Positions 1,131 through 15,649 of a stretch of DNA of 64,000 nt are shown here, one piece after another (the stretch's first letter is position 1; every line of letters starts with the position of its first letter). The stretch lies in the sequence record PQ330092. One strand, 5' to 3'. The translations under genes were made by a program, and so were the position numbers. The notes beneath the pieces were generated by a model, which was given only the letters and a program-made list of their open reading frames with translations, searched no databases and was not told the origin of the DNA. The stretch comes from Escherichia phage JP4.

Positions 1131-1283
1131 GTGTCTGTAGTATTCCAGTCCACCAGCACCGCCTAGAATCGATTCTAACGCATTAAACTGATTATCTGAT
1201 ACATCGCCCTAGCTGGTGGCGTTAAGGTCGTTAGAATGCGATTGAGAGCGTTTAAAGTATTTTGCAAAAAGTAATAAAAAGTA

Positions 1284-1311
1284 CTTGCACGATAAAGAGA
1301 TTAGCGTATAA
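1284..1311 (+). promoter_or_regulatory. sigma70-like promoter (AGTACTTGCA -35 region, TATAAT -10)
   Basis: Class shared by about 20 promoters in the early module. Confidence 0.65.
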
Positions 1312-1367
1312 TGTTTTACATCGAGAGGGGGAAACGGTTCTCCTTCCAAATCAAAGGAATCAAAACA

Positions 1368-1595
1368 ATGGCTATTATCATTACTCGCGTATCTGGTACT
1401 ACTGGCAACGAACAAGTAGTTGCAGTCATTACTAACAAGGCAGGTGCGGAATTGCAAAATGCAATGAATACCTGGGCCGTTAATGAGTTCGGTCAGTGGG
1501 CAAGTGTAGCATACATTGAAACCTATCAAGTGCCGTCGATTAGTTTAACTGATTTGGGCGTTGAGCGTATCCTTTGCCTGGATGAATTAAATTAA
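1368..1595 (+). CDS. Hypothetical small protein (75 aa), MAII-start family
   Basis: Start refined (track ATG lies in -10 box); promoter 1284-1311, hairpin, SD AAAGGAA. Confidence 0.7.
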   Translation: MAIIITRVSGTTGNEQVVAVITNKAGAELQNAMNTWAVNEFGQWASVAYIETYQVPSISLTDLGVERILCLDELN

Positions 1596-1602
1596 AAAAG
1601 TA

Positions 1603-1631
1603 CTTGCAAAGTAAATCGAATAAAGTATAAT
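1603..1631 (+). promoter_or_regulatory. sigma70-like promoter CTTGCA-17-TATAAT
   Basis: Followed by 5'UTR hairpin and SD. Confidence 0.65.
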
Positions 1632-1680
1632 ACATTACATCAAGGGGAGAAATGATTCTCCCCACTACAAGGAAACTAAA

Positions 1681-1893
1681 ATGGCTATCATTACTAAAAT
1701 CAAAGTTAACAAGACTATCGTTAAACTGGCAGAAGTGAAAGAAGGTTATAAAGTATCTTGGTGCGGTATGTATCGGACGTTCGCAGATATAGATGATGCG
1801 ATCAATTATTACAGTGACACGGTTAAAAACTTTGTTCGTGCTGATGTGGTTATGGCAGTGGCAACATATAAAGCAGCGAAAGAAAGTAAGTAA
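1681..1893 (+). CDS. Hypothetical small protein (70 aa), MAII-start family
   Basis: Promoter 1603-1631, 5'UTR hairpin GGGGAGAAATGATTCTCCCC, SD AAGGAA. Confidence 0.7.
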   Translation: MAIITKIKVNKTIVKLAEVKEGYKVSWCGMYRTFADIDDAINYYSDTVKNFVRADVVMAVATYKAAKESK

Positions 1894-1922
1894 AAATATT
1901 ATCACAGTACTATTGACATAGT

Positions 1923-1951
1923 TTGATAGTACTGGCATAATAGATTTTATC
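1923..1951 (+). promoter_or_regulatory. Consensus promoter TTGACA-17-CATAAT flanked by AGTACTA/TAGTACT inverted repeat
   Basis: Near-identical copies at 4753-4781, about 5013-5041 and about 12803-12831. Confidence 0.7.
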
Positions 1952-1984
1952 AAGACGACACATATTAATTTAAGGAATACTAAA

Positions 1985-2308
1985 ATGGCTAAAACTATCA
2001 TCAACACCGTTTCCCTGGCTGCAATCCATGCAATCAATGTTGACGGTAAACGTTGGACTGATTCATATGGCAATACTTATCATTCTTGTCATGTAAGCGT
2101 TGAACTGGATAACGGCTTGAATGATCTGGCGGTTGAATCATTTACTTATGGCTATGAGGATGCATATCAACAAACGGCGGTATCACTCTTAAAGGAATCA
2201 GTAGACGGGCTTGATACTGTTGAAACCTCCCTCTATCGTTTGTGCAATGATCTTAATATCCCGTTGCATTGTACTGTACAGGATGTAAAACGTAAAAAAG
2301 ATCTTTAA
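1985..2308 (+). CDS. Hypothetical protein (107 aa); paralog of 8832..9155 (shared RWTD-x-GNTYHSC and DVKRKKD motifs)
   Basis: Consensus promoter TTGACA-17-CATAAT 1923-1951; SD AAGGAA. Confidence 0.7.
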   Translation: MAKTIINTVSLAAIHAINVDGKRWTDSYGNTYHSCHVSVELDNGLNDLAVESFTYGYEDAYQQTAVSLLKESVDGLDTVETSLYRLCNDLNIPLHCTVQDVKRKKDL

Positions 2309-2388
2309 TTAGCTTTACTTTATGCAGATACTTTGATATAGTGTCTGCATAGGGGAAAGAAATTAAATCAACTTAAGAGGATAGTAAA

Positions 2389-2658
2389 ATGAAAAATATC
2401 AGTACTTTAATCGATGCAGGTACACATGTTCGTCGGTCTATGGTTGCAACCAGTACTACAAAACAAGTAGCAAGCGGTTATCTTGTATTTGTGCACGATG
2501 GTAAACTCCTGGAACGTTCAATCAATTTTGATGTTAAAAACAATTGCCGTTTTATTATCTTTAAGCGTGAACAATATAAAATTGATTTGCCAGCGAAGCC
2601 CATAAGCGGGGCGTACAACGTGCAATCATTGTTTGAGCGTCAACCATACACCTATTAA
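2389..2658 (+). CDS. Hypothetical protein (89 aa)
   Basis: SD GAGGA 7 nt upstream; imperfect hairpin upstream; E. coli-like codon use. Confidence 0.65.
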   Translation: MKNISTLIDAGTHVRRSMVATSTTKQVASGYLVFVHDGKLLERSINFDVKNNCRFIIFKREQYKIDLPAKPISGAYNVQSLFERQPYTY

Positions 2659-13126: not shown

Positions 13127-13154
13127 CAGTACTAACCAGTAATGTATAATGTTT
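13127..13154 (+). promoter_or_regulatory. Consensus promoter TTGACA-16-TATAAT
   Basis: Read directly. Confidence 0.7.
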
Positions 13155-13205
13155 TACATAGAGCGGGGGAATAGTTCTCCCGCCAATAGTTTGGAGTAAA
13201 ATATT

Positions 13206-13406
13206 ATGTCTATCGCTCTCGCCCTGGTTGAAGTACTGAAAGAAGCTAAAGCCAACCTTATCGATGTACAGATTAAGGAATTGCAAAACGGCTTAATCGG
13301 CTGTACTTGTACCGCTGGCGGTGCGGCAGACTATCGAGAACACGAATCACTCGAATCACTGGTTCGGTATCTTACCATGATCGTTGATGATTGGAGAATC
13401 ATCTAA
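13206..13406 (+). CDS. Hypothetical protein (66 aa)
   Basis: Promoter 13127-13154, hairpin, SD GGAG. Confidence 0.7.
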   Translation: MSIALALVEVLKEAKANLIDVQIKELQNGLIGCTCTAGGAADYREHESLESLVRYLTMIVDDWRII

Positions 13407-13424
13407 CAAAAAAGAATAAAAAAA

Positions 13425-13502
13425 GGGATTGACTCCGGTCAGTCCCTTTGCTATTATATACGCATAGACAAAAACTAGCCCACAGGGTGCATAGGTGTAT
13501 CT
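13425..13502 (+). promoter_or_regulatory. Promoter + stem-loop unit without ORF (copy D)
   Basis: Same architecture. Confidence 0.4.
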
Positions 13503-13651
13503 AAAATATATAGTTAATAACGGTGAGTAACTATCTGCTGGTGGAACTAAAACTATTAATAAAAAAGTATTGACAAAGTATATCAGTACTGCGATAATGT
13601 ATCTCGTAGGGCGGCAATGGTGCGACGGCCCACAAAGTTAGGAGCTTCAAA

Positions 13652-13984
13652 ATGACTACTTCAATCGCTATCGTTAAAGCTTTCATCCGTACCAATGTTT
13701 CTTCTGTATTCATCGACGGTATGGATCGGGAAGTAGAATACTCAATCATTATCGCACAGACTGCAAACGGTGCTCGGTATATCCTTAATGATAGTGAAGC
13801 AAATCACTACTACTTCACTAAAGCCACTGGCTTTAAACGCATCGATGCTGATGTAGTATACGCTAAGATGAATAAGCTGGTAGACAAGATTAACGCTAAA
13901 GGCACTATTGATTTACAGTACTGGACCGAAACCGATCCAGAATATGGATCTCACCGCTACCTGAATCCAGGAATTAAAATGTAA
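13652..13984 (+). CDS. Hypothetical protein (110 aa)
   Basis: Promoter about 13570-13598; SD TAGGAG. Confidence 0.7.
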   Translation: MTTSIAIVKAFIRTNVSSVFIDGMDREVEYSIIIAQTANGARYILNDSEANHYYFTKATGFKRIDADVVYAKMNKLVDKINAKGTIDLQYWTETDPEYGSHRYLNPGIKM

Positions 13985-14073
13985 AAAGTACTTGCATAGT
14001 ACTTAGATTCATGTATAATGTTTTACATAGAGAGGGGGAAATGGTTCTCCCTCCTAAATTAAGGAGTTTTATC

Positions 14074-14475
14074 ATGACCTTCTCAATCACTTCCTTCGCT
14101 GACGTTTTAGTACTGGCTCGGACTTTTGGTAAAGATGCACTGGAGTACGCTGTAAGTAATGGCACTATCCAACCGGAACAGTGCCGCATCATTGGAAACT
14201 GCAAACGTTGGGCGGTATCCAATACTATTGCACTGGAAAACTTCCACGATGGCAACAATGAATATTCTGTTGATGTAGTATTCGAAGCCGTTGATCTCGG
14301 CGGTATCTATAATACTAACCTGAATGATGTGCGTATCGTTCGCACGGGGTTCGGTGCTTATGATGTATCTATTCGTGAAGCTATGAACACCGGATACATT
14401 AGCAAGGACTTACTTGCTCACATCATGCAGCTGTGTACGGAACGTAACGAAGCACGCACAATCTTAGGACTGTAA
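14074..14475 (+). CDS. Hypothetical protein (133 aa)
   Basis: Start refined to MTFSIT after promoter about 13988-14016, hairpin, SD AAGGAG. Confidence 0.7.
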   Translation: MTFSITSFADVLVLARTFGKDALEYAVSNGTIQPEQCRIIGNCKRWAVSNTIALENFHDGNNEYSVDVVFEAVDLGGIYNTNLNDVRIVRTGFGAYDVSIREAMNTGYISKDLLAHIMQLCTERNEARTILGL

Positions 14476-14543
14476 GCGTTACACATCACCAAACATCATA
14501 GGCCGCTCTCTAGCGGCCTTAACTATATCAGGAGTACATACAC

Positions 14544-14753
14544 ATGATCTATACAGTATACAGCGTCCTAGGCACTATTGCAGGCGTACATGATAACGTC
14601 GATAGTGCTATGCGTACAGTACTGCAACAGGTTCCACTAAAGCCTAAGACCATTAAGCAGATGACAGCACGACTAACCAGGGCGACCGATGGCGTGGAAG
14701 TATGGCAGGACTACGGGGATACACAGATAATCGTTAGCGTAACGAAGGATTAA
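14544..14753 (+). CDS. Hypothetical protein (69 aa)
   Basis: SD CAGGAG; palindrome AGGCCGCTCTCTAGCGGCCT upstream; large hairpin terminator downstream. Confidence 0.65.
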   Translation: MIYTVYSVLGTIAGVHDNVDSAMRTVLQQVPLKPKTIKQMTARLTRATDGVEVWQDYGDTQIIVSVTKD

Positions 14754-14781
14754 TGCGTAAAGGGATCTAGTACTGATTCAG

Positions 14782-14847
14782 AAAAAAGTCAAGGCGTTTT
14801 TAAAATTATGCGTTAAAAAAATGCATAGGTAATCCCTTGACTTTTTT
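14782..14847. terminator. Large inverted repeat (13-bp stem AAAAAAGTCAAGG / CCTTGACTTTTTT, 40-nt loop); possible bidirectional terminator at end of early module
   Basis: Read directly; A-tract and T-tract flank the stem. Confidence 0.5.
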
Positions 14848-15649
14848 GAAATAAAAGGGATTGGACTATGGCAAAATGCGTAGGGGGCTAAAGGGCGGGT
14901 AACCTAGTAGGCAGAGGAAGTCTGCCGTACTTTGTAGTTTCCAAGCTCCTTTTCCATTTTGCAAATTACATCAAATGTAATCAAAAGTAATCACGCAATG
15001 ATTAGTACTGAATTATTACTTTCACCTTAATTACAATTACCCTTTTACCCTTCGGGGTAAAATTCAATTACCCCTTGAGGCTCCAGCAAAAAGTTGGTTA
15101 GTACTCCATCCTAAATCTCGATCCTAAAAATTTTGGAGTACCTATGAAATAAAAGTTGGATCTTCGAAAGTTGAAATTTACGTTGGGACGTTTATGATTT
15201 GTGGGATATAATGATGTTTGTAGACGGGTAGTTCTCAAGAATATCAGTACTGAATGGTGAAAGAAAGTTATTGACATTATGATTCAGTACTGTATAATGT
15301 TCTACATAGAGAGATGAGTTGCTGCGAACAATTCATTTACTCTACCTCCTGTCGTGAGACAGTACAGAAAAGATAGTTCCTCCTGTGGTGGTACATCTTT
15401 TTGAACCTCATATGAAAATTGTAATAACAGTACTGATATTAACAGAATGGTGTCAGTACTGATTTTAATCTAAAGCATTATGCCACCAGCACAAGCTGGT
15501 GGATTCCCTCTAACAGTATTCAGTACTACATGATAGTCTTCATCCTCCTAGGGTAACATAGTGAGGGCTATGATGGCAGTACTGAATACTCCCTTTCAAA
15601 AGATAGATCTATGGTATAGTACTGACGGATTTTGGGTGTAGTTACCCTG

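Follow-up and report, generated by a model that had tools for sequence, protein, structure and literature searches.

Why should a large coliphage carry a dense cluster of Chi, the octamer GCTGGTGG that is recognised by the RecBCD enzyme of its host, and what might such a cluster do for the phage? The question is raised by a 64,000-nucleotide stretch of Escherichia phage JP4 (record PQ330092; called the window below), in which an earlier note, made from the sequence alone, had described Chi as enriched and biased in orientation within an 'early module' at 1150-15503. An exact scan of both strands of the window gave 18 matches to the enteric octamer, ten of which are independent (eight on the + strand and two on the − strand). 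The sites belong to a 20,114-bp direct terminal repeat (DTR) at 14906-35019, and not to an early module with the limits given before. We read the cluster, with modest confidence and on sequence grounds, as a selected array of functional E. coli Chi sites that would govern RecBCD action at the free ends of the phage DNA.

An octamer confined to the terminal repeat

Megablast places the window among the Asteriusvirus jumbo coliphages (the PBECO4/121Q/G17 group), whose genomes measure 348-386 kb. The best database matches are 93-98% identical to it, and the nearest relatives are all Escherichia or Salmonella Asteriusvirus phages. The host of the window phage is taken from these relatives, and, as all tested enteric species use this Chi (PMC12315714), the octamer is one that host RecBCD would recognise, in agreement with the E. 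coli-like host that had been proposed from the sequence.

The terminal repeat is evident from the 100% identity of window positions 1-14905 to 20115-35019, at an offset of 20,114 bp, and its limits are given by related genomes. The records of CRJP21, fEgEco12 and E9.1 begin at the equivalent of window position 14906, and those of G17, WPEC3 and WPEC5 at the complement of position 14905. In vB_Ec-M-J, an annotated feature of 21,525 bp ('Direct Terminal Repeats') starts with the bases found from window position 14906 onward and ends at the equivalent of 35019, its two copies being 100% identical to each other. A DTR of 20,993 bp has been confirmed for fEgEco12 by PhageTerm and restriction digests (PMC13070987), PhageTerm gave 20,668 bp for Sharanji (PMC11895373), and a terminal redundancy of ~20 kb has been reported for G17 (PMC6563267). 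From the boundary motifs of G17 we obtained 20,668 bp, exactly the length in Sharanji, to which it is near-identical. The repeat of the window is thus an Asteriusvirus DTR, exact, within the range of ~20-21.5 kb and with boundaries that match those of vB_Ec-M-J, fEgEco12 and G17/Sharanji. A tandem duplication inside the genome was considered as the source of the 20,114-bp offset and was rejected, because the starts of the related records put the physical termini at 14905|14906. As contiguous sequence, this junction was found in none of the 34 related records, every match ending there from one side; it is therefore a product of the record or window layout and not natural contiguous DNA. In this layout the window holds one and three-quarter tandem copies of the 20,114-bp repeat, and the duplication inflates any count of features made over the first 35 kb.

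Chi is subject to the same inflation: eight of the 18 matches (21264-33651) repeat others that lie 20,114 bp upstream, as follows from the identity of 1-14905 and 20115-35019. The nine sites listed in the earlier note all proved real. Six + sites (1212, 5252, 6715, 7983, 11737 and 13537) and both − sites (1150 and 15483) stand exactly where it had put them, whereas the + site given as 15496 starts at 15495, and the list had missed the site at 10331 as well as the eight copies. There is next to no chance that the cluster is a counting artefact of the 14.9-kb duplication, even with close to half of the matches being exact duplicates. After de-duplication ten sites are left in 20.1 kb against fewer than 0.4 expected, which refutes duplication as the full explanation and upholds the claimed enrichment beyond chance, and the same cluster is seen in records that carry the repeat in single copy (121Q and SD-15_S21).

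The size of the excess depends little on how it is estimated. Dinucleotide-preserving shuffles predict 0.46 Chi for the window, in place of 18. For one DTR copy, Markov models of order 1-4 predict 0.13-0.30 sites on the + strand, where eight are present (P ~1e-9 to 1e-12), and 0.04-0.10 on the − strand, where two are present (P ~0.001-0.004), an excess of ~20-60-fold on each strand; masking Chi before model building did not raise these expectations. It is the exact octamer that is enriched. Every GCTGGTG and CTGGTGG 7-mer in the DTR lies within a full Chi, and the 24 one-mismatch variants of Chi together occur five times, compared with ten times for Chi itself. Comparison of the flanks of the ten sites revealed no extended consensus in common; the idea that the copies are pieces of one longer repeated element was rejected for this reason, the flanks being unrelated and the octamer alone common. 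Seven of the ten sites are non-coding, despite a DTR that is ~65% coding (P = 0.026), and codon usage therefore cannot account for them.

These properties bear on the proposal that the octamer is unrelated to RecBCD and represents a cis-element of the phage, such as a regulator or terminase site, or else an incidental result of composition, codon usage or repeats. Two families of motifs in the DTR, the palindrome CAGTACTG and an early-promoter consensus, do outrank Chi statistically (no others do so), one Chi lies in a terminator stem, and one pair of sites forms a hairpin. Yet the octamer matches host Chi exactly while its near-miss variants are not enriched, the flanks hold no shared element, codon usage is excluded by the non-coding sites, fewer than 0.4 sites are expected under Markov models of order 4 or lower, and another genus, with Pectobacterium and Cronobacter as its listed hosts, has this octamer enriched in its DTR too, at unrelated positions. 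We regard this proposal as very improbable.

Ten Chi sites in the DTR compare with none in the 28,981 bp of unique sequence beyond it (35020-64000; P = 1.3e-4), as the earlier note had observed for what it called the 29-kb array. At 0.50/kb, Chi in the DTR is 2.3-fold denser than in the E. coli chromosome, which has one per 4.6 kb, or ~0.22/kb (PMC12315714), and it is concentrated at the ends of the virion DNA in the manner of phage P1. The comparison of repeat and unique sequence was extended to a whole genome by using the complete vB_Ec-M-J. Its DTR holds 11 Chi in 21.5 kb (0.51/kb), as opposed to 23 in the unique 335.5 kb (0.069/kb), where the count is close to the expectation of Markov models of order 3 to order 5 (5-7 per strand). 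The densest 21.5-kb segment of the genome is the DTR (binomial P = 3e-6); the second-best is the replication/recombination module, with five sites.

The vB_Ec-M-J genome offers one further observation. Its second-densest Chi region, 213674-235745 (~22 kb), has six sites, all on the + strand, in genes for DNA polymerase, terminase, UvsX/UvsY, helicase and primase. This may be an effect of coding or composition in long conserved genes, or it may be a second functional cluster.

Conservation and recurrence in a second genus

Five DTR-equivalents were compared, those of the window, vB_Ec-M-J, 121Q, G17 and Salmonella phage SD-15_S21. They hold 10, 11, 10, 10 and 11 Chi sites, respectively, and no Chi was found in their sampled flanks. 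Nine of the ten octamers are intact in all four relatives, with flanks that are just 84-99% identical; among all 8-mers that could be aligned across the four relatives, 44.5% show the same degree of conservation (P = 0.004). The back-to-back pair that lies ~580-600 bp from the left terminus is intact in each of the five genomes. Single sites have come and gone, and the counts have stayed near-constant despite these gains and losses: 121Q has gained one Chi, while the − site at DTR position 6359 (window 21264), intact in vB_Ec-M-J and SD-15_S21, has decayed in 121Q (to CCGTCAGC) and in G17 (to CCACTAGC).

The enrichment recurs in Mimasvirus. For Pectobacterium phage CBB, a terminal repeat of 22,456 bp has been deduced from double read depth and pulsed-field gel electrophoresis (PMC5259590). 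We found seven + and two − Chi in this repeat, against roughly 0.2-0.6 and 0.04-0.15 expected. Over the first 100 kb of the CBB genome, nine of the 13 Chi fall in the repeat and four in the next 77.5 kb (0.40 vs 0.052/kb, P = 4e-4). The DTR-equivalent of Cronobacter phage GAP32, another Mimasvirus, also has seven + and two − sites, with three more in ~28 kb outside it. The Asteriusvirus and CBB repeats were compared and have no collinear nucleotide homology, and Chi in CBB and GAP32 stands at positions that bear no relation to those of the Asteriusvirus sites. Each of the two genera therefore maintains the enrichment independently of the other. Phage T5 gives at best a faint echo. It has two Chi in its first 50 kb (8127 and 8689, both +), both of them inside the 10.2-kb terminal repeat and ~1.5 and 2.1 kb from its inner boundary, and two sites, at about host density, are too few for a statistical case. 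For Pseudomonas, the host of the RaK2-like phage PA5oct, the Chi-like sequence reported is GCTGGCGC.

Orientation of the sites and the fate of free DNA ends

Chi takes effect only if RecBCD comes upon GCTGGTGG from its right (3' side); the + sites therefore face the right genome end, and not an end at window position 1, and only the − sites face the left one. Every site faces one of the two ends, the eight + sites being 1,361 to 19,517 bp in from the right and the two − sites 577 and 6,358 bp in from the left. The orientation bias noted before is real as a description, but the 8:2 split lies within the 2.4-7.3:1 expected from the G-rich + strand (P = 0.4-0.9), and strand bias as a sign of selected polarity was accordingly rejected. 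With an assumed recognition probability of 0.2-0.4 per site, 83-98% of RecBCD entries from the right end would be halted within the DTR, vs 36-64% of entries from the left.

Some of the sites are structured. The earlier note had described two inverted-repeat pairs and several sites in intergenic hairpins, and this holds in part. The pair at 15483/15495, located 577 bp from the left terminus in a ~1.7-kb leader of the DTR that is free of open reading frames (ORFs), forms a perfect 8-bp stem with an ACAA loop (predicted fold, z = -3.8), and a terminator-like stem of 11 bp (z = -3.7) has the Chi at 5252 as its 3' arm. The sites at 1150/1212, on the other hand, are 54 bp apart and amount to an 8-bp inverted repeat that gives no significant fold, and no significant structure was predicted for the remaining intergenic sites, among them 7983 and 13537.

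How would such an array work? RecBCD would load on a blunt virion or replication end, degrade the DNA inward and meet a correctly oriented Chi while still in redundant sequence. An enzyme entering from the right end would find eight + sites, the nearest of them 1.36 kb in, and one entering from the left would find the two − sites, 0.58 and 6.4 kb in. At Chi, its nuclease would be attenuated and RecA loaded on a 3' tail of DTR sequence. This tail could then invade the other copy of the DTR, restoring the part that had been degraded and yielding a circular molecule, a concatemer or a fork primed by recombination. On this model Chi would be confined to the DTR because only losses within the repeat can be recovered from a second copy. 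We infer that RecBCD gains access to these ends, that Chi is active on the phage DNA and that phage fitness is affected.

The protection of DNA ends suggested in the earlier note is plausible, given that the sites all lie in the terminal repeat and that the cluster is conserved and present in a second genus, but sequence does not separate it from recombination. Protection might even be the whole effect: Chi would blunt RecBCD, buying time for early expression and limiting the fragments that feed spacer acquisition by CRISPR (clustered regularly interspaced short palindromic repeats), whereas recombination would be left to UvsX/UvsY, with no host-mediated exchange between the DTR copies. That Chi protects linear DNA and limits spacer acquisition is reported to have been established by Dabert et al. 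1992, Kuzminov et al. 1994 and Levy et al. 2015. The data on enrichment, localisation and conservation are the same for this explanation as for an array that also directs recombination, a relative encodes its own recombinase set, and the DTR, crowded with consensus sigma70 promoters, is an immediate-early region whose survival has to come first. A search of PHROGs and Pfam recognised no anti-RecBCD protein among the ten largest DTR ORFs, which is weak evidence; ~35 smaller ORFs were left out. However, Smith and colleagues argue that the apparent 'protection' by Chi needs RecA and is inseparable from recombination. Attenuation on its own also leaves unexplained why Chi is missing from the unique and more valuable DNA just past the DTR, and the end that probably enters the cell first is faced by just two sites. 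Attenuation without recombination therefore seems to us unlikely, if worth keeping in mind.

Less likely again is a role as in the host chromosome, in which Chi, co-oriented with replication and transcription, would act on collapsed forks or on the ends of terminase-cut concatemers and not on injected ends. The + sites are indeed co-directional with all genes of the DTR and with the positive GC skew that runs across the window, and in the unique region of vB_Ec-M-J the − Chi fall in blocks of − strand genes. Yet co-orientation is predicted by strand composition anyway, and the ~7-fold higher density in the DTR than in the other 335 kb, which are replicated likewise, finds no explanation in repair of forks.

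Several points weigh against an array selected to govern RecBCD at the phage ends. The family, as annotated in vB_Ec-M-J, has recombination functions of its own (a UvsX-like recombinase and UvsY, together with SbcCD-like, DprA-like and endonuclease VII functions), and published surveys tie high Chi density to phages without a Rec module (PMC12315714). The strand bias equals that expected from composition, so that orientation lends no independent support. Both − sites are found in the left third of the DTR, and its right half contains six of the eight + sites; such a placement, + toward the right and − toward the left, is suggestive of an end-facing design, but the numbers are too small for significance. 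The left end has just two usable Chi, one of them decayed in 121Q and G17, and yet it is plausibly this end, with its sigma70-driven early genes, that is injected first. In CBB, finally, the Chi sites are mostly coding, so the preference for non-coding positions is not general.

The RecBCD-governing array can be taken a step further, in a form that we put forward tentatively and consider possible more than probable. The ~20-kb repeats of the RaK2-like jumbo phages, Asteriusvirus and Mimasvirus alike, may be modules devoted to the handling of RecBCD, each a sacrificial and redundant buffer studded with Chi. Such a buffer would make RecBCD, the main host nuclease against linear DNA, begin repeat-by-repeat recombination and so circularise or concatemerise the genome despite the phage's own UvsX/UvsY. 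The two-faced Chi hairpin ~580 bp from the left terminus would then be a compact bidirectional stop.

Other elements of the repeat and comparison with known systems

The coordinates of the repeat, its junction and the individual Chi sites are collected in Table 1.

Table 1. Terminal repeat and Chi sites in the window (64,000 nucleotides; the second-copy column gives the equivalent positions 20,114 bp upstream)
Feature	Coordinates	Second copy	Strand	Basis
Complete DTR unit, 20,114 bp; left end of the virion genome, with all ten independent Chi	14906-35019		+	starts of relatives' records; annotated and PhageTerm DTRs
Second DTR copy, last 14,905 bp; right genome end, clipped by the window start	1-14905		+	identity to 20115-35019
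Junction, right and left physical genome ends abutted	14905-14906		.	no contiguous counterpart in relatives
Back-to-back Chi pair, CCACCAGC-ACAA-GCTGGTGG	15483-15502 (− Chi 15483-15490; + Chi 15495-15502)		.	exact scan; both intact in 5/5 genomes
− Chi, intergenic, 6,358 bp from left terminus	21264-21271	1150-1157	−	exact scan
+ Chi, intergenic, 54 bp from − Chi 21264	21326-21333	1212-1219	+	exact scan; intact 5/5
+ Chi, intergenic, 3' arm of 11-bp terminator-like hairpin AGCCCACTGG...GCTGGTGGGCT	25366-25373	5252-5259	+	intact 5/5
+ Chi within 62-aa ORF, read Ala-Gly-Gly	26829-26836	6715-6722	+	intact 5/5
+ Chi, intergenic, ~39 bp upstream of promoter-like site	28097-28104	7983-7990	+	intact 5/5
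+ Chi within 80-aa ORF, read Ser-Leu-Val-Glu	30445-30452	10331-10338	+	intact 5/5
+ Chi within 90-aa ORF	31851-31858	11737-11744	+	intact 5/5
+ Chi, intergenic, + site closest to right terminus, 1,361 bp in	33651-33658	13537-13544	+	intact 5/5
Decayed Chi, GCTGGCGG; ortholog intact in vB_Ec-M-J, G17 and SD-15_S21	33428-33435	13314-13321	+	alignment of relatives

The DTR is an immediate-early region of the phage. Its genes are small and all on the + strand, and its G+C content differs little from that of the unique region (38.6% vs 35.4%). It contains a dozen perfect TTGACA-N16/17-TATAAT promoters and many terminators, and the long early-promoter consensus AAAAAGTACTTGCA ... TGTATAATGTTTTACATCA occurs in ~17-20 copies between 14906 and 35019, an unusually dense array of host-type promoters. 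In PHROGs and Pfam, the ten largest ORFs of the DTR matched only a DksA-like zinc finger and a GNAT acetyltransferase.

The palindrome CAGTACTG is present 33 times in one DTR copy, 18 of these in the first 5.2 kb (14906-20114, where it is densest), and 12 more times in the next 29 kb (35020-64000), as against 0.76 expected over the window as a whole. The most frequent 8-mers in the DTR of CBB (1-22456), which is unrelated, are likewise AGTACT-centred words. The CAGTACTG palindromes may be operators for an early regulator, or the targets or avoidance marks of some enzyme. Another recurrent element is an identical 28-bp hairpin, AAAGGGATTGACTCCGGTCAGTCCCTTT, with a 12-bp stem, which is found at least three times (28009-28036, 31278-31305 and 33536-33563), with copies 20,114 bp upstream and a variant at 23989-24016. 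It holds a TTGACT hexamer resembling a -35 element, followed by TATTAT, and looks like a combined terminator/promoter cassette.

The left-end leader, from 14906 to ~16580 (~1.7 kb), has no annotated gene in the relatives. It contains a perfect promoter (15271-15298), a 14-bp hairpin with CAGTACTG at its ends (15428-15461) and the Chi palindrome, and could be a leader RNA, a region for packaging or terminus recognition, or a regulatory hub. Beyond the repeat, a long series of closely spaced + strand ORFs (~100-200 aa) occupies ~43900-64000, and the stop and start codons of many of them overlap. This is the 29-kb array of the earlier note. It is free of Chi, its G+C content (~31-33%) is below that of the DTR, and its GC skew is stronger.

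If the RecBCD-governing array exists as proposed, it would supply one reason why giant phages retain ~20 kb of exact terminal redundancy, and it would extend the co-option of Chi from temperate P1 and lambdoids to virulent jumbo phages with recombinases of their own. Were the repeats in fact RecBCD-handling modules, they would be without precedent among virulent jumbo phages and would depart from the rule of 'Rec module or Chi, not both'. There may also be practical consequences. Asteriusvirus phages are candidates for phage therapy, and the rec status of the host, or defences linked to RecBCD, could affect their efficacy. RecBCD-dependent acquisition of CRISPR spacers starts at injected free ends, and Chi near those ends should shrink the region exposed to it. 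For Asteriusvirus records deposited without termini, the Chi cluster could mark the DTR and the physical ends in silico.

In full-text searches we found no paper that ties Chi or RecBCD to Asteriusvirus, RaK2-like phages or the terminal repeats of other jumbo phages, and no data on rec-mutant hosts for the Asteriusvirus group. The sole mention of RecBCD found in the Asteriusvirus literature is the annotation of a RecD-like helicase in the Sharanji paper (PMC11895373).

The closest known system is P1, which has 50 Chi sites, densest where its virion ends fall, and whose growth needs RecBCD, RecA and Chi recognition (bioRxiv 10.1101/2021.07.08.451572; PMC12315714). Like JP4, P1 has a Chi density more than twice that of E. 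coli, concentrated at virion DNA ends or terminal repeats, with both orientations present and no preference for ORFs, and the role proposed is also the same, RecBCD/RecA recombination between the terminal repeats of injected linear DNA. Unlike JP4, P1 is temperate, with a genome of ~94 kb that is packaged by the headful from pac, a variable redundancy of 5-10 kb and ends spread over 20-40 kb. JP4 is virulent, and its jumbo genome of ~350 kb has fixed ends and an exact DTR of 20.1 kb, to which Chi is confined; its family encodes functions of the UvsX/UvsY type. The dependence on RecBCD is experimental in P1, whereas for JP4 we infer it.

The lambdoid phages of the 'No Rec module - high Chi' class, such as LLS (PMC12315714; Bobay et al. 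2013, PMC3784561), share with JP4 a number of Chi sites above expectation, a strong strand bias, a Chi density that does not track G+C and an interpretation as co-option of RecBCD. They are, however, temperate, ~40-50 kb in size and bounded by cos or pac ends; they lack a recombinase of their own and carry Chi over much of the genome, whereas JP4 has Chi in one terminal 20 kb of a virulent 350-kb genome, a recombinase of its own and a strand bias that composition explains. Asteriusvirus phages do not have the lambdoid architecture, being jumbo myoviruses of ~350 kb with T4-like replication and recombination genes, nor do they lack a recombinase, to judge by the UvsX-like, UvsY, SbcCD-like and DprA-like annotations in vB_Ec-M-J.

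T5 resembles JP4 as a virulent coliphage with a long exact DTR (10.2 kb, its first-step-transfer DNA) and pre-early genes transcribed by host RNA polymerase; it differs in having just two Chi in its first 50 kb, at about host density. The same octamer occurs at 1008 sites in the chromosome of E. coli K-12 (one per 4.6 kb), where its orientation follows the leading or coding strand, the G-rich one. There, Chi reportedly lies preferentially in ORFs and is tied to frequent codons, whereas JP4 has seven of its ten sites in non-coding DNA, a G+C content of 35-39% and a 2.3-fold higher density. The accumulation of Chi in phages, and near terminal repeats, is thus known already from P1, from lambdoids of the LLS type and from the survey of Bobay et al. 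2013. What differs in JP4 is its setting: a virulent jumbo phage with a fixed and exact DTR, and Chi sites that are confined to this repeat and mostly intergenic, in a family that has its own recombinase.

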